From Justusliebigvirus alia, in sequence record OZ035799.1: 64,000 nt of DNA; one strand, written 5' to 3'. Under the pieces are notes generated by a model. The model did no database searches. It was not told the origin of the DNA and saw nothing but the letters and a program-made list of their open reading frames with translations. A program made the position numbers and the translations under genes. Below, piece by piece: positions 2,404 to 61,680 of the stretch (positions are counted from its first letter, which is position 1; each line of letters begins with the position of its first letter).

Positions 2404-5217
2404 ATGTATCCTATTCCTTTATTTATGTCAACAACATCAGCTTCAGTAGTAACAGCTACATCTATAACCACTTCATCTATTGGTATTGCAATAGTTGGTA
2501 GTAAAAAGCAACTGACATACACAGTTTCACCGGAAGATGGTGCGTTATTTGATATAGCTTTTTCATCTTCAGATAATACCAAAATGGTTATAGATAATAG
2601 TGGTATGATGGAGTTTGTTGCCGAAGGTGGTTTTGATGCAATAATGACAGCTAAAAATAATTTAGGTGCTGTCTTAACTGATCAATCTGGGGGTTATGCT
2701 TCAGAATTAAGCGTGTACACTGAAAGTCTATCAGCTATGGATGTAGGCACTACTCAACAGTTGGTTGCTACAATCAGTCCAGAAGGTGCTAAAGATCTTC
2801 CAGACATGGTAATTACGTACACCACAACAGATCCAGAAGTAGCTACTGTAAGCCCTACAGGATTAATAACTGCTCTTAAAGATGGCAATTGCCGTATAGG
2901 TTGTACTGCAACGTATCAAGGAACAGTTGTGGCCTCTGATAGTTCTTATTTAGGTGTTAATGCTATTCCTGTTATTTCTAATGTAACAGCCGTGGCAAAC
3001 AGCTATGGAGACGTTCGTGTTGCTTGGGATGTAACTGATCCTCTAGATGGTGATACTTATACTGTAGAAGTATTAGATTTAAGTAATAACAGTGTCCAGT
3101 GGACTACAACAACCACGAATACTTACGCCTACTTTGATATCTCTGACTCTATTCCTCTTTATGGGTTTGCTCCAACATACCTTAAAATTAGCGTTAAGAG
3201 CACCAAAGCAGCAGCCGTTATCTTTAATAACTCAATAGCTACAGATGATTCATTCATTAAAGAAGTTATTGTCTTTGCTGGACAAGATAACGTAAATGCA
3301 CACTTTACAGAACTATCTGGTGCAAATAAAGCAGCAATGAGTAGCACAACAGCCCGTAATGCATATGCTACGCAACGTGGTTTAGCAAATGCTGAAGTTC
3401 TTCCGTTAAATACAGCTTCTGGATCATCAGCAGCAGATAAATATGCTGACGATAAAGCTGGAACAGGTACACCAGACAACTACTGGTATGATCTGGATAA
3501 CACAGCAGATGGGCCATGCTTAACTAACTTTATCACTAAAGTCACACCTTATGCAAGTAAGGTTAAAGCCATTATTTGGGGACAAGGTGAAAATGATGCT
3601 GTATCAGCATCTTCAACTGTTGCAGGTAGATACAGTAACACTACACGTTACCATGATGCTACGATAGCTATCTTTGATAAGATGCGTACAATAGTTCCTG
3701 CTTCTCAAGCAAAAATTGTTTGGCAGATCCTGGGACGTTCTTATTTATATGGTGTAGAAGTTAATGGTGTGGATTGGCAGAAGTACAGAAATGTACAAAG
3801 AACCATCTCTACAGCACGTGATGATGTTATCATTGGTTCTTGGGTAGATGGTGCTGAACGTTACAGTGGTTATGTTTATGAAGAAGGTATTGATGGTCGT
3901 ATCCATTATATTTCTTCTGTATACCAAACAGCAGCTACAAAACTTGCTAAATCAGCAGCAGACGGTACAGACTTAACATCAACGTCACCTGTTTGGGTTG
4001 ATATGGCTGTTCCAACTGGAGCAACAGCTACTTCCCAACCTAATCAAGATACAATTTTAGCATGGGATGCTCAAGGCTATAGTAAACACTACTTCCGTAA
4101 TATTAACGTCTTAACCGCATCTGTATTAACTGAACAAACGCTTAATACGAACAGTTATACGTTTACCTATGCAGATCAAGTAGAACAATATGGTTTTGCA
4201 GCAGGAACTACTGTATTTGATGTTGCATATTATGACGAAGCAAATGATGTGTTATCTCCTTTAGTACGTTTTAATGTTAATGTTACACCAGGAACTGTCG
4301 TGATGGATTATGATTTGACACAAGAAACTCTTCCAGCAGATGTGCGCGTAAACAGGAGCAACCATTATGCTAGGGCTTCTGGAGATATCCTTGTACCGAC
4401 AGAGGTTTCTGCTCCTATAGCACCTTTAGAATATATTGGTACAACGCCACAAGGTAGACGTGTTGTAGCAGCCAGCCGTACATATATCTTTATCAACAAT
4501 AACTTGACAACAGCTTCCCCGTGGTTGAAGACGAACTTGACAGTTACAGCATCAACAATCAACTCTCCGGTTGGAACTACAGCTAACACTTACAAGTTAA
4601 CACCTTCTACAACTTCAGGACAACATATTTTATCAGCGGTGAATACAGCTTCTGATATTACAGCAGGTAAACAATGGGCTGCATCTGTATTCTTGAAACC
4701 AGACGGGATCACTAAAGTCAAGCTCAAATTGACTTCAGGAGATGAGGTTAACGAAGGGACTTATGATCTTGAAGCTGGAACATTTACAGGCACAGATGCA
4801 AATATGATCGACATGGGGAATGGTTGGTATCGTGTAATCTTACATAAAGTAACGATTGCTAAACAAGCCTCTATGACTTATGAGATTATAGCTTTGAATG
4901 CCAGTGGATCAGACACTTTTGCAGGAGACGGCACTGGAGGTCTTATTGCTTGGGTTCCACAACTTGAAATGGGTGATATGACAAACCCAGTTTGGGCGGG
5001 GACACCATTTGTTTGTACTTATGCACGAGACACAGATAGTGCTGCCACCTTCACTATTCCTAAGAACGGACACACTGGCGTGGATATTTACCACACAGAT
5101 GGAACTGTGCAAAGAGAGATTTTCACTGGCACAGCTACTACTTGGATGTTGTCATTCAACGCCGCAAGTGCGGATTGGGGATCGAAATTCATTTCTGGTT
5201 TGAAATATTACGACTAA
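2404..5217 (+). CDS. large tail fibre / receptor-binding protein with Ig-like domains; possible esterase-type motif (WGQGENDA)
   Basis: 937-aa ORF, ATG after AAGGAG; Ser/Thr-rich beta-rich sequence typical of fibres/tailspikes. Confidence 0.65.
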   Translation: MYPIPLFMSTTSASVVTATSITTSSIGIAIVGSKKQLTYTVSPEDGALFDIAFSSSDNTKMVIDNSGMMEFVAEGGFDAIMTAKNNLGAVLTDQSGGYASELSVYTESLSAMDVGTTQQLVATISPEGAKDLPDMVITYTTTDPEVATVSPTGLITALKDGNCRIGCTATYQGTVVASDSSYLGVNAIPVISNVTAVANSYGDVRVAWDVTDPLDGDTYTVEVLDLSNNSVQWTTTTTNTYAYFDISDSIPLYGFAPTYLKISVKSTKAAAVIFNNSIATDDSFIKEVIVFAGQDNVNAHFTELSGANKAAMSSTTARNAYATQRGLANAEVLPLNTASGSSAADKYADDKAGTGTPDNYWYDLDNTADGPCLTNFITKVTPYASKVKAIIWGQGENDAVSASSTVAGRYSNTTRYHDATIAIFDKMRTIVPASQAKIVWQILGRSYLYGVEVNGVDWQKYRNVQRTISTARDDVIIGSWVDGAERYSGYVYEEGIDGRIHYISSVYQTAATKLAKSAADGTDLTSTSPVWVDMAVPTGATATSQPNQDTILAWDAQGYSKHYFRNINVLTASVLTEQTLNTNSYTFTYADQVEQYGFAAGTTVFDVAYYDEANDVLSPLVRFNVNVTPGTVVMDYDLTQETLPADVRVNRSNHYARASGDILVPTEVSAPIAPLEYIGTTPQGRRVVAASRTYIFINNNLTTASPWLKTNLTVTASTINSPVGTTANTYKLTPSTTSGQHILSAVNTASDITAGKQWAASVFLKPDGITKVKLKLTSGDEVNEGTYDLEAGTFTGTDANMIDMGNGWYRVILHKVTIAKQASMTYEIIALNASGSDTFAGDGTGGLIAWVPQLEMGDMTNPVWAGTPFVCTYARDTDSAATFTIPKNGHTGVDIYHTDGTVQREIFTGTATTWMLSFNAASADWGSKFISGLKYYD

Positions 5218-9064: not shown

Positions 9065-11644
9065 TCAGTGACAACTGGCCCATGAGTTACCAACATCGTA
9101 ACCAGCAGTGAGAGGTACATTAAGATTGTAATACTCACCAGCTTTATTAACAGCGATAGATGCTAATTCTCCAGCACGACTGTAGGCTGTAAACCAACCA
9201 CCTTTTGGAGATTCATGTACGTTAGCCCAAATCTTGCCAGTACGTTTCTCTTCCTCTTCTTTCCAAGCATTAACTTTATCCAAACATTCTTTATCAATTT
9301 TCTTTTGTTCTTCTGGATCATCAACTTGAGTCCAACCTAAAGATTCTTTAGAGAACCATTTAAAATGCACCAGATCACGAGTTACTTCAAGCTGTGCTTC
9401 ATCGTGATATGCAATCATTTGTTGAACGAATGACTTATTTTTCCAGTCATCAACAAAAAAGTCAACAGCTAATCCTTCTTCTTCGATAAGATCGTCGTAG
9501 ATAACCATTGCTCTTTTTGCACAAATAACACCACCACTCTGGAACAGAGAGTTAAGTATTGCGTGTGCAGATCGTGTAGGTACTTTTCTACCATCAATAC
9601 CAAGAATGTATTTCTTACCTGTTTTAACCCAAAAATCATGCAGACGTTCTTTAAGAAGCGCAAGAGGTTTTGCAGCTTCCCAGAAAGCATCGTATACAAG
9701 CTGTCCTGTATACATATCACTACCTATAGTTTTTGCTACTTTTGCAGCTTGAGCACCATAAGTAATACCATACTTAACAGATTTAGCAGGGCTTCGTTCA
9801 AACTTACGACCAATAGTGTCAGAAATACGTCGAGCCATCATTGTATGAACATCATTAGGTTTTTCCAACAATAGAGCATTACAATATTCGTGTGGTTCCT
9901 GCTCGTACCGCCAACAGTAGTGGGATTCTATTTTTGCCTCAAGAGAATCAAAGTCATAACCAATTTGGAAGTATTTTGGAACTTCTACACCAAATAAGTT
10001 ACGCATTTCATATCCGTACAGAGATGTTACACGTGGGATATTTGCTACTAACCTATGTTTCATACGAGATGTAGCCGCATCACACGTTGCAGCAGGAGTT
10101 GGTATACGACCATCAGCCCTTACTGCTGCCAGATAACCCTTATCGTAATCCTCTTCATCTTCTTCCCAATCAGCACCACCTCCTAGAATAGAGTTCCTAC
10201 GGTGTTTATACGTAAGATACTGCACAATCTGCGTAGCATAAGGAAACTTTTCACCCAGTGCTTCCAAGTTAGGACAAATATCTTTCTCTTGCCCTTTTGT
10301 AAAGGAAGGGTTAGTAAGCACTTTAACACCACGACCTTTAGCTTTAGCAATACGATCTCTTAGTTTCCATTCCAAAGTTTCTGGTGTGCACTCCAGATGA
10401 TCACATCTGTCCTGGCAGAAGTTAGATGCTAACGTTTGATCAACATAGTCACGAATAGCTTTCTCCATCTGTGCTTCATCTTTCTTAATCTTAGTGCCAG
10501 ATTTAAGAGTGATATCTTTATCTTTATATTCAGATGGACTCCAACCTAAACCAACTAACCAGTTTTTAATATGTGTAGTGTCGTCTAAAGTAGCAGGTAC
10601 TGTAGGATCACAAATAGGTTCTTCTGCTGGAATAGGGAGTTTAAACTCTTTACCTAATGCAAATAACCACCAACCATCTTCTTTTTGTACAAGTTCACCA
10701 GAATGTTTCTCTGCAAACTTTATCATGTTACTTGAAGGTTCACCATTCTTTTTAAACTGTAGTTTAGGTGGAATGAATGATTTCAAATAACCTTTAGTAG
10801 CAGGTTTAGGAGGTAGCACAGGTTCTGCCTCTAAACGACATGCTTCCATTCGAGCATCCAGATCACGAATATTATCTTCTGCTTGTTTCATATTGAAAGC
10901 AAAGCCACGGTGCTCTTGACGTGTAATAATATCCGCTACACGTTGTTCTAAGTTAAATGGTTCAGACCACTTATTATAATCACCCCACTCTTCCATCAAA
11001 TAACGGAACACTGCGGTGTTAGCTTTGTTATCGTAAATACAGTAATACAGCATATCTGCTGCAAATGTTTTAAATCTTTCAGTTTCAGGAATGTTTTTTC
11101 TAAAATCAATTTTAACATCCCCTCCAGCTTTTTTAGATAACTCTGCCAGACTATGACCACCGAAGCGATCAGGGTTTAGTGTCTTACTTAAGATCATAGT
11201 ATCACAAATTTCAATGTTACTATTACCCCAAGTATTGTACTTAATACTGTAGTTGAGTTTAAAAAATAATTTAATTGCCAGTAAGTCGAAGTTAATGATG
11301 TTGTGTCCAACTACTTTGGTAATTTTATAGTTTGAATTACCTTTAAATTTACCTGTTCCGTTTACAAAATCAGGAAAATCTTTAAGAGGGAAATGGGTAT
11401 ATTCTAAATGCTCATATTCCTCCAGTCGGTATTCATACTTTCCGTCAGTCTCAATATACGGACGACCATCGAAAAGATATTTATCACCATCATGGAAAGC
11501 AATAATCTCTCCAGTATCATGACTTTCGCACACAATACAGTGCATTGCAAAACTATCTTTTAAACGATATGGACTTGCCAAGTAATCTACACTTTCGTCA
11601 TTAAGCAAGTTGTTACTTTCAATGTCGAAAGTAAAAGCTCCCAT
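9065..11644 (-). CDS. DNA polymerase, family A, with 3-prime-5-prime exonuclease domain
   Basis: 859 aa; N-terminal FDIE exonuclease motif; strong AAGGAGGGAG RBS. Confidence 0.9.
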   Translation of the reverse strand: MGAFTFDIESNNLLNDESVDYLASPYRLKDSFAMHCIVCESHDTGEIIAFHDGDKYLFDGRPYIETDGKYEYRLEEYEHLEYTHFPLKDFPDFVNGTGKFKGNSNYKITKVVGHNIINFDLLAIKLFFKLNYSIKYNTWGNSNIEICDTMILSKTLNPDRFGGHSLAELSKKAGGDVKIDFRKNIPETERFKTFAADMLYYCIYDNKANTAVFRYLMEEWGDYNKWSEPFNLEQRVADIITRQEHRGFAFNMKQAEDNIRDLDARMEACRLEAEPVLPPKPATKGYLKSFIPPKLQFKKNGEPSSNMIKFAEKHSGELVQKEDGWWLFALGKEFKLPIPAEEPICDPTVPATLDDTTHIKNWLVGLGWSPSEYKDKDITLKSGTKIKKDEAQMEKAIRDYVDQTLASNFCQDRCDHLECTPETLEWKLRDRIAKAKGRGVKVLTNPSFTKGQEKDICPNLEALGEKFPYATQIVQYLTYKHRRNSILGGGADWEEDEEDYDKGYLAAVRADGRIPTPAATCDAATSRMKHRLVANIPRVTSLYGYEMRNLFGVEVPKYFQIGYDFDSLEAKIESHYCWRYEQEPHEYCNALLLEKPNDVHTMMARRISDTIGRKFERSPAKSVKYGITYGAQAAKVAKTIGSDMYTGQLVYDAFWEAAKPLALLKERLHDFWVKTGKKYILGIDGRKVPTRSAHAILNSLFQSGGVICAKRAMVIYDDLIEEEGLAVDFFVDDWKNKSFVQQMIAYHDEAQLEVTRDLVHFKWFSKESLGWTQVDDPEEQKKIDKECLDKVNAWKEEEEKRTGKIWANVHESPKGGWFTAYSRAGELASIAVNKAGEYYNLNVPLTAGYDVGNSWASCH

Positions 11645-47759: not shown

Positions 47760-47974
47760 TATTTTGAAAATTTTTATTTTTATAAAAAGGGGTGTGGGTT
47801 TCATGTACGGAAATTCACCCTCTGAATAATATATCCAGAGTAAGTATTATTTTGTACTCTGTTAATAAATTATTTAATTTGTTTGTTGGAATATGTTATC
47901 TGGTTTTTAAAAGGCATACTATCTCTTAACTACTACTTATAACAGAACAGTAAAATCATTTTTATAAAAAGGAC

Positions 47975-48180
47975 AAAATTATTTAAAGTTTTTACAGATT
48001 TTTGGGTACAAATTTAGAAAATGAAAAGTTCAAGTTTGGTCAAAATTATTTAAAGTTTTTGTACGTATTTCTATCCAGATTTTGAAAATGAAAACTTCAA
48101 TTTTTTAAAAATTCCCCAGTTTATTTAAAGTTTTTTTGCCTTTTTCCGTAGAAAAATCAAAAATGAAAAGTTCAATTTCG
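47975..48180. repeat. three copies of ~55-bp direct repeat (AAAATTATTTAAAGTTTTT...GAAAATGAAAAGTTCAA)
   Basis: Both sub-motifs recur three times in same order within 200 bp of AT-rich non-coding DNA. Confidence 0.6.
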
Positions 48181-48198
48181 TGTTTTTATGGGTGTGCG

Positions 48199-48312
48199 TA
48201 TGATAATCATTTTCATTTGTAAATGAGAATCATTATCATTTAAGTATGTAAGTGATAATCATTCTCACTAAGAGAATGAGAATCATTAGCAAATGAGAAT
48301 TTTTCTCATTTA
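48199..48312. promoter_or_regulatory. cluster of five Fur-box-like palindromes
   Basis: TGATAATCATTTTC, TGAGAATCATTATC, TGATAATCATTCTC, GAGAATCATTAGC and perfect palindrome AAATGAGAA-TTT-TTCTCATTT; up to 13/14 match to GATAATGATAATCATTATC core. Confidence 0.45.
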
Positions 48313-48573
48313 GAGAATAACGCGCAGGGGTGGTGTTTGTCTCGCGCTCCCGTGTCCCCTCGCCATACAATAAGAATAGCATAACCAACAACAAAAGCAA
48401 GCGATTATTTTTATCTTTACATTTCTTTACAAATTTATTTTAGACGAGCTACCGGCGATCAACCTTCCAACCAGTAGTGCCCTGGTATGTTAGCCCCGCC
48501 TTTACGCCGTGGGGGTGGCGTTTCCTCTTCTGTATGTAAAACAGTATAAGCCCGATCCCTGGGCTTGTCAAGA

Positions 48574-48840
48574 TTATTTTTTGTTTTCTTGCCAGGATAG
48601 GACACCTAACCAAAAATACATGTCGCCCCGCGCCCCTGGCGGGATCTTGCTTTCCCCGCCGCCACTGCAAGCCCATAGATAACCATTTACGAACGTATCA
48701 AAGTGATCTATCTCTTCCACCTTATGATTGCCCAGGTTGAGAACGGTTTCAACCTTTAAGCCCGTTGCGCTTGCTACCTGGTGCACCGTGCCGCCTTGCC
48801 AGCCCAATGAGTGCATGAGATGTAAAGGAGTATTTGTCAT
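48574..48840 (-). CDS. hypothetical protein encoded in GC-rich island
   Basis: 88-aa ORF (MTNTPLHLMHSLGWQGG...) with AAAGGG RBS; surrounding ~600 bp clearly more GC-rich than rest of window. Confidence 0.3.
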   Translation of the reverse strand: MTNTPLHLMHSLGWQGGTVHQVASATGLKVETVLNLGNHKVEEIDHFDTFVNGYLWACSGGGESKIPPGARGDMYFWLGVLSWQENKK

Positions 48841-49105
48841 GGTATCGCCCTTTCTTTGATGTGCGCCCTGGTTGGCGCGGTAGAAAGATAATAGCCGTTT
48901 CCTTTATAGATAGCAAGCAAAAAAGAAATGAAAAAAGATTAAAAAAATGGTTGACGTTCCTCACCTGGTAGCGTAGTATTCATCTTGTCGAGGGGGCGAG
49001 GCACAACGACAATAAACAAAAGGAGGGCGCAATGTAGGACGGGCAAAGGTGAGGATCTCCACAATCCACCGTCACAATAACATTACTTATAAAAGGTTGA
49101 TAACG

Positions 49106-49201
49106 ATGATCAAGAAAGAAAACAGCTTGACGGTTGGAACGATTAACGCTATCATTCTTGCCGTTCCATTTTGGGTTGTAGTAGCGGTTATTATTTTTTA
49201 A
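49106..49201 (+). CDS. possible small membrane peptide (31 aa)
   Basis: ATG with weak AAGG; hydrophobic; not in track. Confidence 0.2.
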   Translation: MIKKENSLTVGTINAIILAVPFWVVVAVIIF

Positions 49202-49209
49202 AAATATTC

Positions 49210-49267
49210 TTGACAACGTTTTTTAATCTGATAAGATGTATCACATAGGGCGGCAATAGTGCCGCTC
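49210..49267 (+). promoter_or_regulatory. promoter-hairpin cassette (TTGACA ... CACATAGGGCGGCAATAGTGCCGCTC)
   Basis: sigma70 -35, then conserved CACATAGGG element with stem GCGGCA/TGCCGC, ~22 nt before ATG 49290. Confidence 0.55.
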
Positions 49268-49289
49268 ATAACAGAAGAGAGAAATAATC

Positions 49290-49562
49290 ATGGCATCATA
49301 TAGCGCATCAATGATTGTAATGGGTATCACTGGTAAACCTATGCGCGGTGGCGGATCTTTCGCTAACATCAATATTGATGGACGTTTATCCCTGGACGCA
49401 GCGATCACAGTGGCACGGGAAACGTTTAAAAAAGAATGTAATTTCAATAAACAAGATTATCTCGGCTTCGTTATTGAAAAAACCGCGCGCTTTGTTGATT
49501 ATAAAAGCCCGAAAATGATCGACACTACACTAAAGGCGCAAGATGTAGCTTTTTTGCTTTAA
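49290..49562 (+). CDS. hypothetical small early-type protein
   Basis: 90-aa track ORF behind cassette. Confidence 0.6.
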   Translation: MASYSASMIVMGITGKPMRGGGSFANINIDGRLSLDAAITVARETFKKECNFNKQDYLGFVIEKTARFVDYKSPKMIDTTLKAQDVAFLL

Positions 49563-58399: not shown

Positions 58400-58636
58400 A
58401 TGAAAGAAGTCATGATCCTCAAAAAATCACCTATTTTACGTGGTGGCTTTATCGCTTACTCTGATGATCTGTTAATTGCAACGGTTGCAAAAATACTAAA
58501 ATCAGAAGAGGATAGTAAAAACGGCGTTTATCGTATCTGTTTCACCCGTGGGAAATTGCAAGGCAAGATCGCCTATGCTTTTGATTTACAAGATGTAAAT
58601 GATAAAATCTGCGCTGTTATTGATTATGCAAAATAA
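58400..58636 (+). CDS. hypothetical protein
   Basis: 78-aa track ORF. Confidence 0.55.
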   Translation: MKEVMILKKSPILRGGFIAYSDDLLIATVAKILKSEEDSKNGVYRICFTRGKLQGKIAYAFDLQDVNDKICAVIDYAK

Positions 58637-58648
58637 TTAACTTTCTTA

Positions 58649-58700
58649 TTGACACCGGATCACGCTTACATTATTATTTATCACGTAGGGCAAATCATTT
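58649..58700 (+). promoter_or_regulatory. promoter plus degenerate conserved element (TTGACA ... TATCACGTAGGGCAAATC)
   Basis: -35 hexamer; CACGTAGGGC retains 5-prime half of conserved element without stem. Confidence 0.4.
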
Positions 58701-58723
58701 TAAACGGTAAACGAGGAAACACC

Positions 58724-59107
58724 ATGAGCAATATCATCAACCTGGCAGCGACTGTAAACGGTAAAGACTTTAACGGCGCTGTAGACCGTGATCCTATGTG
58801 GTGCTTATCAGTGTTTAAAGGCGACCTGGTTGAAGTTAGAACAACCGAAGGGTATAGCGATGATTATAAATGCGAGATCCATTTACATAACTGGTACACG
58901 GGTAAAACTTATGCGCTGAATCACGCGTTTATCGGGAAAATTGAATATCGCGAAATGATCGACGAAGAAACGGGGCAAGATTTTAGCGATTATGTTTATA
59001 TTCGTTCCGAAACATTAGCCGAACGGTTGATCGAGAAAATGAAAGCAAAAAATAAAATTAATTTATCTCATTGGATTGATATAACAAACGATCCAGCTTA
59101 TCAGTAA
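58724..59107 (+). CDS. hypothetical protein
   Basis: Track ORF 58649 begins in promoter; ATG at 58724 after ACGAGGAAA. Confidence 0.55.
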   Translation: MSNIINLAATVNGKDFNGAVDRDPMWCLSVFKGDLVEVRTTEGYSDDYKCEIHLHNWYTGKTYALNHAFIGKIEYREMIDEETGQDFSDYVYIRSETLAERLIEKMKAKNKINLSHWIDITNDPAYQ

Positions 59108-59123
59108 ATAACATTCCATACAA

Positions 59124-59149
59124 GGGCGCAATAAGCGCCCTTTCTTTTT
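59124..59149 (+). terminator. rho-independent terminator (GGGCGC-AATAA-GCGCCC + T-run)
   Basis: Identical stem-loop to 53743; ends the small-gene array. Confidence 0.6.
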
Positions 59150-59354
59150 ACCTCAATAAAGATGATAGCTTTTACCTATCAAAAACGTTCACCGAAAAAA
59201 GTGAATAGATCGCGGTATCGAGCTAATCAAGGAGCAGATGAACAACCATACCATGAAGATCATAAGGCGCTTACAACGTGTTTTAGACCGCTTATTTTTA
59301 ATTTCTTCATGCAACTATCTGGCAAAAACAGCCTTTTTCTTGTCTTTCCTCTTA

Positions 59355-59430
59355 AATGATAATCATTCTTATTTATAGCTGATTATTTATGCAATAAACT
59401 GCATAATGCAATAATGATAATCATTCTTAA
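59355..59430. promoter_or_regulatory. two Fur-box-like motifs (AATGATAATCATTCTTA; AATGATAATCATTCTTAA)
   Basis: 12-13/14 match to Fur-box core, in AT-rich non-coding DNA. Confidence 0.4.
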
Positions 59431-59796
59431 CTTATGACCATCTAACCTATAAAATAATAAGTTATCTAACTAAATTAAAACTAATTATCTTACTTTTATT
59501 TATAACTTACTGTTACTATCTCATTGATAACCTTATATTAAACAACAATAACTAATATAAATCATTACTAAGCTAAATATAATCTATCTAACCTTTAAAA
59601 CTATAACTATAATCTATTGAATTATTGCACAAAGTAACTATTAAATCGTTAGTAACATTACTAAATAATTAATATCCTATTTATTTATGATCTAATCTTT
59701 ACCTTACTATCTATTACCTAAATAATCATTTTATACCGTAATCATTTCATACAATAATTATAACAAGAAATATAATTAGCAAGCGTATCATTAGCA

Positions 59797-59954
59797 GCCT
59801 ATGCCGGACACATAGGCGGCTAATAATAACGCAACTACACACCCCACATAATAACCATCACCGATAGTTATTATTTGTGCTTATGTAGCTTGCAACAACT
59901 GCAAGCGCAACAATATACATGGTATATTGTATTCCCTTACATTGTTGCGGTGCG
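59797..59954. repeat. nested inverted repeats (GCCTATG-N7-CATAGGC; ACAATATAC-ATG-GTATATTGT; GCGCAACAAT...ATTGTTGCG)
   Basis: Perfect palindromes read directly from sequence. Confidence 0.55.
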
Positions 59955-59990
59955 TTATTATTAGCTAATGTTTAGAACATTGGCTATAAT

Positions 59991-60063
59991 ATAAGCTATC
60001 CAATAATATAAGCTATCCAATAATAATAAGCTATACAATAATAATAAGCTATACAATAATAAA
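59991..60063. repeat. four tandem 17-18-bp direct repeats (ATAAGCTATCCAATAAT x2, AATAAGCTATACAATAAT x2), iteron-like
   Basis: Head-to-tail repeats in AT-rich intergenic DNA. Confidence 0.6.
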
Positions 60064-60227
60064 CATCGTGAATAATGATGCTGATGATCATAATGCGCCA
60101 CCTTCCAGGGCGGCGCTATGTGAACACAAAGAAATCTTTCTTGTCAAGAAAAATATTAACACTATTGCGCAAAATTATTTATATATGAATAGATGGTTTT
60201 TCATACTATTGCCCCTATAACATACCT

Positions 60228-60284
60228 CATTTGTTGCAATGTACCTTCCTATTTGTTGAGTATAGTTATAGCCTATTTGTTGAG
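60228..60284. repeat. three copies of (C)TATTTGTTGAG-type motif
   Basis: CATTTGTTGC, CTATTTGTTGAG, CTATTTGTTGAG spaced ~20 bp apart. Confidence 0.45.
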
Positions 60285-60353
60285 CCTACTTTCTTAAAAG
60301 CGCAATAAAGTAGAAATATCTTGATTTTTAGTCGGTTTTATAGTACAGAAAGT

Positions 60354-60377
60354 ATGCAAATGATAATCATTATCAGC
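60354..60377. promoter_or_regulatory. Fur-box-like motif (AAATGATAATCATTATCAG)
   Basis: Contains TGATAATCATTATC, 14/14 to Fur-box core. Confidence 0.45.
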
Positions 60378-60540
60378 TATCTTCCACGGGTAGCACTATT
60401 TCACGCCAGATCATTTCATTTGGCAAGGTGTATATAGATGTTTAGACTTGCCAAGCCATTGATTTACTTAGAATTTATCTGTTTTGTTGTGAGTAGTACC
60501 TTTCTTGCTCAGAAAATAATCAAAAGTCTTATAAGTCATT

Positions 60541-60574
60541 GAATGATAATGCAAATGATAATTATTCTCATTGA
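60541..60574. promoter_or_regulatory. tandem degenerate Fur-box-like motifs (GAATGATAATGCAAATGATAATTATTCTCATTGA)
   Basis: Repeated GATAAT half-sites. Confidence 0.35.
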
Positions 60575-60944
60575 TATTTGAGGGGGACGGTCGGCAGAAA
60601 TCGGGGGGCGCTGAAAATCGCGTTAAGCACCTCTCGCAAGCGAGCAGTATTTTGCGGCAAGTTATTGATATTATTGACTTTACGCTTATGAAAAGGGGGT
60701 GTGTCGAAATAAATCGGGTATACCGGAAAATTTTTGTGGCATAGATATTTATTTGTCTATATTATGTACAAAGGGGTGTGTTAAAAATATTAGGTATATA
60801 TAGAATAATTGATAGGGAAATCCTATGCTAATCCCTCCATTAATGATGTTCCTATGTTACTGTTCTTGTAATAGATGAAAAGACGCTGTATGATGTGTGG
60901 CATGAAACGTAAACTTACAACGTAAACTTATAAAGGAGTCTGAT

Positions 60945-61322
60945 ATGTGTGTTCCTCTTAGCAGTCCACTGCTGTTAGAATTTTACAAAGCATGGATGCA
61001 AGATCATTCCTCAATGCATCGTGAGAATGTTGGTTTGTGTATTTGCCTTATGGATTATCTGGCAACCACTATGTCAAAGAAAAAACCTACGCGAGAAGAT
61101 ATAGAACATTTCAAAATGGTTCGCAGTAAAACGCTGGAAGAGATGAAATTGCAATTCACGTGTGCTGGGCTATCCTCCTTCCTGCCCTTTAATGATGATC
61201 TTCTGTGTTATGAAGATGAAGGTAAGAAACATTCTTGCCATACTAACCCAGAGAGATTGCAGTGGGTGAAAGATCGTATTGCCGATTCATGTTTGGTGTT
61301 AGGGGGTGATAATGAAAAGTAA
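60945..61322 (+). CDS. Cys/His-containing small protein, paralog 1
   Basis: 125 aa; AAAGGAG RBS; motifs FYKAW, GLC.CL.DY, QFTCAGL, LPFN.D, CHTN..RLQWVKDRI. Confidence 0.6.
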   Translation: MCVPLSSPLLLEFYKAWMQDHSSMHRENVGLCICLMDYLATTMSKKKPTREDIEHFKMVRSKTLEEMKLQFTCAGLSSFLPFNDDLLCYEDEGKKHSCHTNPERLQWVKDRIADSCLVLGGDNEK

Positions 61323-61680
61323 TATTCCGTTGAGTAGTGCAGCTTTAATACGATTCTATAAAGCATGGATTGCCAACCATCCGGCAATGAATCGCACAAC
61401 GAGTGGCTTGTGTGGTTGTCTGGTAGATTATGTAGATGATTTTGTTGGTGAGGTAACTAGAGAAGAAGATAAAAGATGGCGTGATCGTTTGTTGGATAGT
61501 TTGAAATACGAAATGAGGAAACAATTTACATGTGCAGGACTGGACTACAATCTTCCGTTCAATGCAGATTGCATGGATTACCTTTCAGAATGTATAGACT
61601 TGGCGTGTCATACCAACACGTTACGTCTTCAATGGGTGAAAGACAGAATCGAAGATGCAAATAATGCTTGCATTGAATAG
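61312..61680 (+). CDS. Cys/His-containing small protein, paralog 2
   Basis: Track start is GTG at 61306; ATG at 61312; same motif set as paralog 1. Confidence 0.6.
   Translation: MKSNIPLSSAALIRFYKAWIANHPAMNRTTSGLCGCLVDYVDDFVGEVTREEDKRWRDRLLDSLKYEMRKQFTCAGLDYNLPFNADCMDYLSECIDLACHTNTLRLQWVKDRIEDANNACIE

Follow-up and report, generated by a model that had tools for sequence, protein, structure and literature searches.

We analyzed a 64,000-nt stretch of DNA from the myovirus Justusliebigvirus alia (sequence record OZ035799.1; the whole stretch is hereafter called the window) and concentrated on the AT-rich region without genes at 59341-60300, for which an earlier inspection of the letters (the sequence-only reading) had preferred a replication origin made of iterons and an AT-rich unwinding region, with a terminal-repeat or pac region as the alternative. 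This region is probably the untranslated subterminal segment at the right end of a linear chromosome packaged, as in T7, with direct terminal repeats (DTRs) that are short and exact, and would take part in concatemer-junction and packaging control. The repeat is already annotated in phi92 and is the known part of this arrangement; the folded element, the array of cut-site motifs and the Fur-box-like sites described below are the new parts. None of these, nor the G-poor tract that accompanies them, was annotated in any of the public records inspected, the phi92-type records carrying an annotation of the repeat alone.

The window corresponds to positions 32001-96000 of a 148,442-bp record, and its segment 59100-61000 is 100% identical to J. 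alia OZ035770.1 (91100-93000); about 40 other phi92-like E. coli myoviruses of the Stephanstirmvirinae were 92-95% identical to the same segment. In phi92 (FR775895.2), 343-bp direct repeats are annotated as PHI92_DTR-L (1-343) and PHI92_DTR-R (148270-148612), and a homologue of the same length and with the same boundaries was aligned to 60283-60625 of the window, with 97.5% identity over the repeat and its right flank. The flagged region is therefore located immediately inboard of the right physical end, where it covers the 940 bp to the left of the repeat and runs 18 bases into it. The 343-bp repeat occurs once in the 148,442-bp record OZ035770.1, which is therefore a circularly opened assembly. 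Inspection of related records showed that those of Salmonella phage UAB_1, BME3, Klebsiella phi1_175008 and Phapecoctavirus Schickermooser end at the right boundary (60624/60625), to within one base, and that the left boundary (60282/60283) coincides with the record break in VEcB, a PD06-like contig and Phapecoctavirus Ro121lw, whose record ends with ...GGGAATGTTG and starts with AGCAAGTTCTC.... In total, seven independent records from three lineages break at one of the two homologous boundaries. The repeat is annotated at both ends in UAB_1 as in phi92; PhageTerm gave a 342-bp repeat for BME3 (PMC12210895), and terminal repeats have been reported for the whole subfamily (PMC12695924). By homology with phi92 and UAB_1, the same sequence is predicted at both physical ends, the arrangement that characterizes the short-DTR (T7-type) class, and the physical ends are the left end at 60283 and the right end at 60625, as assigned to this isolate from its homologues. 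The terminal-repeat or pac region, which the sequence-only reading had put second, is supported by the phi92 homologue and the seven broken records. Within the repeat, 40% of columns were invariant among Justusliebigvirus genomes in the middle (60400-60500) and 86-94% at both ends, which suggests that constraint falls on the ends of the repeat only. The core TTGGCA...TGCCAA of an inverted repeat in this middle part was kept in most lineages and degenerate in three Phapecoctavirus genomes.

In two genera, GTTR^AGC is found at each of the two DTR boundaries, in the same orientation; together with the shared break positions of the seven records, this marks the boundaries as fixed and sequence-specific. 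The left one is TTGTTG^AGCC here and ATGTTG^AGCA in Phapecoctavirus, and the right one is CGTTA^AGCAC. Among 13 Justusliebigvirus genomes, ATTTGTTG was present in 1-5 copies, the last of which always adjoined the boundary, and ATTTGTTG is the left cut-site motif. Three such motifs had been listed before in J. alia; two of them are exact (TATTTGTTGAG at 60250-60260 and 60274-60284), and the third, CATTTGTTGCA at 60228-60238, turned out to be a variant. As a genome-wide motif, GTTRAGCMC was too short for a test (2 matches versus 1.6 expected).

To the left of these motifs, comparative sequence analysis indicates that the palindromes are one multi-helix element maintained by compensatory changes (Table 1). 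The sequence-only reading had pointed out the inverted repeat GCCTATG...CATAGGC (H1) and the 9-bp palindrome around ATG (H4), both of which are present, and had overlooked a perfect 15-bp long-range stem, which encloses a stem of 4-5 bp together with H2 and H3. In total, 21 distinct homologues of the element were collected from phage records, IMG/VR and metagenomes, 18 of which were used for the fold. Protein-anchored retrieval from IMG/VR yielded 5 loci only, 4 of them without the element; a DNA pattern scan was more productive, with 14 metagenome hits, of which 5 were set aside as chance matches. The RNAalifold consensus was more stable on the minus strand (-56.2 kcal/mol, covariation term -4.45) than on the plus strand (-49.5 kcal/mol, covariation term -2.64). 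On the minus strand, 99.2% of cells were paired, and compensatory changes were found in 14 of the 47 pairs (54 cells). None of 500 shuffles reached any of five measures, and slid partners gave 26-51% pairing. Similarly, the 193-nt block had fold z-scores of -6.2 as minus-strand RNA, -5.8 as plus-strand RNA and -7.7 as minus-strand DNA, and none of 200 shuffles folded as well. With a covariance model, the minus strand scored 184 bits and the plus strand 33, and no second copy was detected in the window. BLAST placed the element at 133 sites in 132 phage records, in keeping with one copy per genome. In the shared helices, approximately six independent changes give G.U on the minus strand versus one on the plus strand. 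A search of 58500-61500 on both strands against Rfam 15 returned only a chance-level snoRNA match (E = 0.86). In the relative arall, the loop of H2 (3740-3790 of the retrieved locus, corresponding to the window H2) is inverted from ACC to GGT with a perfect stem, the hallmark of an inversion mediated by a hairpin or cruciform; arall also has an A-T pair of the 15-bp long-range stem replaced by T-A, a compensated change.

Table 1. Features in and around the untranslated gap, in window coordinates
Feature	Position	Strand	Description
Last gene upstream of the gap	58724-59107	+	Gp30.8-like, Pfam PF06019, homologue of Phi92_gp248
Intrinsic terminator	59122-59142	+	8-bp stem followed by TCTTTTT
Fur-box-like site A (candidate)	59352-59370		TTAAATGATAATCATTCTT; 14/19 to GATAATGATAATCATTATC, exact AATGATAATCATT core
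Fur-box-like site B (candidate)	59410-59428		AATAATGATAATCATTCTT; 16/19 matches
AT-rich, G-poor tract	59430-59780		GC ~19%; C53, G13 in 340 bp
Multi-helix folded element	59778-59966	-	~180 nt; "nested palindromes" of the sequence-only reading
H1	59797-59817		7-8-bp hairpin; GCCTATG 59797-59803, CATAGGC 59811-59817
Long-range stem	59819-59833 with 59951-59965		perfect, 15 bp
H2	59848-59874		9-bp hairpin
H3	59888-59906		8-bp hairpin
H4	59910-59930		ACAATATAC-ATG-GTATATTGT; Justusliebigvirus only
18-bp tandem array	59986-60062		ATAAGCTAT(C/A)CAATAATA; 4.4 copies, 96% matches, Tandem Repeats Finder score 126
GC-rich hairpin	60095-60116		GCGCCACC-TTCCA-GGGCGGCGC; no T-run on either strand; conserved within the genus
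Three ATTTGTTG motifs	60228-60284	+	last copy ends at the left DTR boundary (...TTGTTG^AGCC...)
DTR, single collapsed copy	60283-60625		343 bp; by alignment to the phi92 annotation
Fur-box-like site C (candidate)	60356-60374		GCAAATGATAATCATTATC; 17/19 matches; 73 bp inside the left repeat boundary
Inverted repeat inside the DTR	60419-60453		TTGGCAAG-N19-CTTGCCAA
Fur-box-like site D (candidate)	60551-60569		GCAAATGATAATTATTCTC; 15/19; in a run of GATAAT hexamers; 56 bp inside the right boundary
Untranslated leader	60626-60944	+	from the repeat to the first left-end early gene (60945-61322)

Next to the element lies the AT-rich tract, whose extent of about 450 bp, as estimated earlier, was borne out by a guanine-cytosine (GC) content of approximately 19-24%: from about 59300 to 59800 the GC fraction was 0.195-0.24 and the GC skew -0.42 to -0.60. 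The tract was unalignable between genera; its low GC and its excess of C over G (skew -0.21 to -0.61) were kept in all 10 lineages tested. Such an easily melted tract, kept in composition in all lineages and with more G than C in the minus-sense strand, would suit a transcription-primed origin: a leftward transcript carrying the element in its 5' part would form a persistent RNA-DNA hybrid in the tract, the hybrid RNA being G-rich relative to C, and prime leftward synthesis, a design likened to ColE1 RNA II and to T7 and T4 origins. The G-poor tract directly adjoins the covariation-supported element, for which the minus strand gives the better fold and more wobble pairs, and the element marks a switch in local GC skew, from negative to positive on its right. 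A secondary origin of T7, situated directly inboard of the right terminal repeat, counts for the same explanation. Nevertheless, we consider such an origin unlikely: no convincing minus-strand promoter was found to the right of the element, the only candidate starting inside the long-range stem; the gap has no DnaA boxes, no conserved 18-bp repeats and no adjacent initiator gene; and the genome-wide GC skew follows the direction of transcription. A replication signal in the cumulative GC skew was rejected in the same way, the skew mirroring gene orientation.

The same base composition, read on the plus strand, would suit a Rho-dependent terminator or insulator, in which Rho loads on C-rich, G-poor, unstructured read-through RNA and the hairpins pause polymerase, shielding the packaging site and the concatemer junction from transcription. 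The plus-strand C/G ratio was 1.5-4 over 340 nt in all lineages (53/13 here and 1.5-2.6 in other genera), and the tract, which has stable hairpins downstream, begins approximately 290 nt past the intrinsic terminator (59142), so that a stretch predicted to be C-rich, G-poor and unstructured with a hairpin downstream, as in Rho terminators, is present. A pause site, however, has no need of a 15-bp long-range stem under compensatory constraint, the wobble pairs point to the other strand, and the upstream intrinsic terminator already looks strong. Termination by Rho is an improbable role for the tract.

The four tandem 17-18-bp repeats on which the preferred origin had been built do exist, with a period of 18 bp. 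Nevertheless, the unit occurs in only 1-2 copies in the twelve other Justusliebigvirus genomes, and the bin 60000-60049 contains no invariant column among 7 genomes and is the most variable spot of the gap. The array is a strain-specific expansion private to this isolate, as judged by comparison of these genomes, and its copies fail as iterons. In addition, none of the 12 DnaA-box matches of the window falls in the gap (59108-60944), and no initiator-like gene lies beside it, the flanks coding for a Gp30.8-like protein and small proteins of unknown function. Iteron origins such as lambda ori and plasmid oriV share with this region an AT-rich tract, a feature that alone does not define the class, and, in this isolate only, four 18-bp repeats; conserved 17-22-bp repeats, an adjacent initiator gene and DnaA boxes were not found. 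The iteron-type origin is therefore unsupported as it was argued. A 16-bp tandem repeat (AATAATCATTTCATAC, 2.4 copies, 59721-59758) was also observed at the right edge of the AT-rich tract, with a Fur half-site-like AATCATT inside; its copy number varies as well, with an extra unit in inny and fewer in a PD06-like genome.

The 18-bp and 16-bp arrays and the ATTTGTTG copies vary like slippage products, as expected if the whole region were a functionless AT-rich spacer with repeats and palindromes arising by chance or slippage. For the region as a whole this is very improbable, since conservation over most of the gap exceeds that of the adjacent genes (mostly 80-98% invariant columns versus 0-44% in the neighbouring early genes, in 7 full-length gaps), the palindrome block carries compensatory changes, and the Fur-box-like sites and cut-site motifs are conserved across genera. 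The spacer explanation is contradicted for the element, the boxes and the boundaries and holds for the tandem arrays only.

The whole unit is flanked by Fur-consensus sites, which also occur within either end of the repeat. Sites A and B fall within the flagged region and, like the 343-bp repeat from 60283, had been overlooked. With 14-17 of 19 consensus positions at four sites and a hexamer array at site D, these are candidate members of the enterobacterial Fur-box class, which is recognized by the 19-bp consensus GATAATGATAATCATTATC or by a GATAAT array; here they would stand in a virulent phage, in or beside a terminal repeat and not clearly over a promoter. The core AATGATAATCATT is exact at 59355, 59413 and 60359 and has one mismatch at 60554, and site D is followed by the invariant TGATATTTG and a GC-rich block. 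Statistically, 5 matches to the Fur consensus with ≤3 mismatches were found at 4 sites in the window, versus 0.02 expected. In the 148-kb genome, 11 matches with ≤4 mismatches were found, versus 1.9 in composition-preserving block shuffles, and 7 of the 11 fall in two untranslated gaps; all four genome matches with ≤3 mismatches fall in these two gaps. Site A was nearly invariant among 8 Justusliebigvirus genomes, and site C was kept in Justusliebigvirus and weaker in Phapecoctavirus. A box with ≤4 mismatches was present 329-491 bp left of H3 in every relative whose fetched DNA extends there, including Phapecoctavirus, Klebsiella phages and metagenome contigs, and another was present right of H3, near the right repeat end, at 525-666 bp (471 bp in L025) in every relative with DNA extending there. 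The box sequences vary within the consensus, and their positions are held as the surrounding sequence diverges. Fur boxes in virulent phages were not described in the literature searched, in which only the sit-operon boxes of temperate lambdoid phages were found.

These sites may alternatively form an iron-responsive unit, in which Fur-Fe2+ bound at 59352, 59410, 60356 and 60551 would control terminal promoters whose product is a non-coding RNA with the folded element or the first early genes, or in which the boxes would titrate Fur, soaking it up as the genome replicates and thereby de-repressing host iron uptake. Consensus matches far above chance, clustered in two gaps that share only these 20-25-nt box units, and boxes that hold their position amid diverging sequence are consistent with such a unit. 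In E. coli, the sequences closest to box C were found in the promoter region of an FTR1-family iron permease gene, 67 bp ahead of the gene, and a weak promoter-like TTAACT-17-TAAAAT (59427-59455, plus strand) adjoins box B; the other promoter-like site near a box, at 60571-60543 on the minus strand, is also weak. In the promoter scan, no box overlapped a convincing promoter or a strong -10/-35 pair, and promoter-like sites were at chance level. For a virulent phage, shutting down early promoters under iron-replete conditions would seem costly, and a phage-encoded protein recognizing the same palindrome may be responsible instead. We regard an iron-responsive unit as possible, though doubtful. 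Hand-built promoter candidates near the boxes were unconvincing.

The second untranslated gap with Fur-box-like sites (47760-49290) follows genes for an ATPase, an HNH endonuclease and a NADAR protein. In it, three repeats of approximately 67 bp (47974-48170) are followed by 5-6 densely arrayed Fur-box-like sites (48196-48310); further features are a GC-rich part, in which about 48440-48840 may be a small open reading frame (ORF) on the minus strand, and strong sigma-70-like promoters (TTGACG... at 48951 and TTGACA-17-TAAGAT at 49211); most of this gap, used as a query, was conserved in 55 phage records. Its array lies 12.4 kb from the right physical end, that is, 8.3% of the genome. In T5 (NC_005859), 5-6 repeats of TTTTTAAATGAGAATCATT(ATC) were found in the annotated injection-stop region 9140-10149, at about 9560-9720 of the record (about 1160-1320 of the retrieved locus). 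In T5 and its relatives these repeats sit directly after paired DnaA boxes and match the Fur consensus, and the same kind of Fur-like repeats was seen in VSe12 (858-880 and 1210-1400 of the retrieved locus).

A control of genome entry like the T5 injection-stop signal, by which DNA transfer would be halted or paced at repeats, palindromes and host-protein boxes near the end, could be considered. The 5-6 Fur-like repeats beside DnaA boxes in T5, the BLAST matches of the 48.2-kb array to T5-like phages and the distance of that array from the right end, 8.3% compared with the 7.9% transferred in the first step by T5 (10.1101/866236), all fit it. As in J. alia, the terminal repeat of T5 is associated with a large untranslated region that is more strongly conserved than nearby genes and rich in direct repeats, palindromes and host-protein boxes; T5 also carries Fur-like AAATGAGAATCATT repeats similar to those found here. 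The T5 repeat, however, is about 10 kb long, its region is built on paired DnaA boxes that are absent from 59108-60944, and two-step entry, a T5 trait, would be hypothetical in phi92-like phages; the closest match is the internal gap at 48.2 kb, so that the likeness concerns that gap more than the flagged region. Entry control is a quite improbable function of the flagged region. The most detailed analysis of the T5 injection-stop region discusses DnaA boxes and never mentions Fur (10.1101/866236), and no link between Fur and the injection-stop signal was found in the literature searched.

For concatemer-junction and packaging control, which we favour, the parts could work together as follows. 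Terminase would recognize and cut concatemers at GTTR^AGC on either side of a single junction copy of the repeat, and the repeat would then be duplicated by strand-displacement or by hairpin- or primase-primed synthesis, as proposed for T7. The folded element would act single-stranded, probably as the minus strand, in repeat duplication or priming, and host Fur may bind the flanking boxes as an architectural or regulatory partner. In T7, pac signals and a hairpin intermediate are found beside the right-end repeat, and short repeats flank the repeat. The junction described here is alike in its short non-permuted terminal repeat, the short motifs beside it, a hairpin-forming block inside the right end and a repeat that must be duplicated during packaging. 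It differs in that no sequence similarity exists, in that it belongs to a 148-kb myovirus that uses host RNA polymerase and has no phage-polymerase promoter, and in having a 180-nt multi-helix unit >300 bp from the cut site as well as Fur boxes. That T7 concatemer processing must duplicate the repeat, and that a hairpin intermediate is known, is stated in PMC4281155, which cites Chung and Hinkle 1990.

Several observations weigh against this reading. The ends assigned to this isolate are those of its homologues and not of its own reads, and terminase may require nothing left of the cut site. Covariation does not separate RNA from single-stranded DNA, and the minus-strand preference suggested by the wobble pairs has a p of about 0.06. 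The distance from the element to the cut site varies, the fixed segment from hairpin to repeat alone measuring 131-210 bp within the genus and the 18-bp-repeat segment adding more, which argues against a rigidly phased complex. Finally, the rV5-like phage LL12 also has short terminal repeats, but it lacks Fur boxes and matches the element weakly, at 28.8 bits. A 459-bp terminal repeat was predicted for LL12 by PhageTerm (PMC6658697), and it is alike in that its short repeat lies inside a 2.5-kb untranslated gap; unlike here, this gap has no Fur box with ≤5 mismatches, no GTTR^AGC and no alignable sequence. A structure of approximately 220 nt with a perfect 17-bp stem (ACATAATATAAAAGCAG...CTGCTTTTATATTATGT) was observed in LL12 about 210 bp from the repeat (2638-2856 of the retrieved locus) and may be an analogue of the element in a sister subfamily. 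Several of the readings weighed here could hold together.

As a broader and tentative proposal, less likely than not to hold in full, host Fur may be a conserved cis-acting partner of end-proximal untranslated control regions in two unrelated groups of virulent coliphages, and the strand-specific 180-nt element may be a new factor in repeat duplication or replication priming. If true, phi92-like phages would carry boxes in each repeat end, where the subterminal tract begins, and in an array located 8.3% of the genome from the right end, and T5-like phages an array inside the injection-stop region; the phage might use Fur for iron sensing, for pacing entry or early transcription, or, by titrating it, to turn on host iron uptake. 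Fur sites conserved in position would then tie the development of a virulent phage to the iron status of its host, and those found across genera resemble the repeats in the unexplained T5 injection-stop region. The covariation-supported element beside the repeat offers a handle on the old question of how short-repeat phages duplicate their repeats. In practice, the positions of the chromosome ends tell engineers of phi92-like therapeutic phages which 1.8 kb to leave intact, and annotators can stop calling small ORFs in the gap.

With respect to its surroundings, the region belongs to a gap without genes of 1,837 bp (59108-60944), in which all ORFs are ≤65 amino acids, close to the earlier estimate of about 1.7 kb without convincing ORFs. 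The terminator said to close the preceding gene array is real, as were all other features listed in the sequence-only reading at the coordinates it gave; it ends the right-end block of small plus-strand early genes and is also annotated in Paula, phAPEC8 and Schickermooser. Phi92_gp248, the homologue of the last gene upstream, is the last gene of the phi92 record, and the genes 3' of the gap correspond to those at the start of that record. On the physical map, the genes leading away from the left end over about 10 kb are small and on the plus strand, and plus-strand genes also head toward the right end for about 18 kb. Two ORFs in the gap were rejected as genes, one of 46 amino acids (59238-59378, with AAGGAG upstream) and one of 65 amino acids (59162-59359): both contain stop codons in phAPEC8 or phi92 and neither had a Pfam or PHROG match. 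What looks conserved in them is the DNA and not the protein, the peptide NDNHSYL being a translated Fur box, and no ORF in the gap is conserved. Public records, including PQ226818.1, OR525700.1 and PP925843.1, list 9-11 "hypothetical proteins" of 30-47 amino acids in the gap, to which conservation gives no support.

The promoter scan returned 17 sites versus 15.2 expected, which is at chance level, with none matching at least 10 of 12 positions inside the gap and no strong sigma-70 match in the leader, of which the part 60650-60799 had 96-100% invariant columns within the genus. A candidate phage-specific promoter motif, AAATCGGGTATA / AAAGGGGTGTGT, was rejected as not enriched in the window, and no tRNA or tmRNA was found. 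The only strong promoter match within 3 kb of the flagged region is a near-consensus sigma-70 promoter (TTGACA-17-TATTAT, 11/12, 58649-58677) just 5' of the Gp30.8-like gene. The first two left-end genes (60945-61322 and 61306-61680) overlap by 17 bases and are paralogues, both assigned to phrog_2510 (unknown function); gene content at the left end varies among relatives, and arall lacks both. Four "Campylobacter phage" records (MG065639, MG065645, MG065656 and MG065689; host given as Campylobacter jejuni) showed 95% identity over the gap, and their host labels are doubtful.

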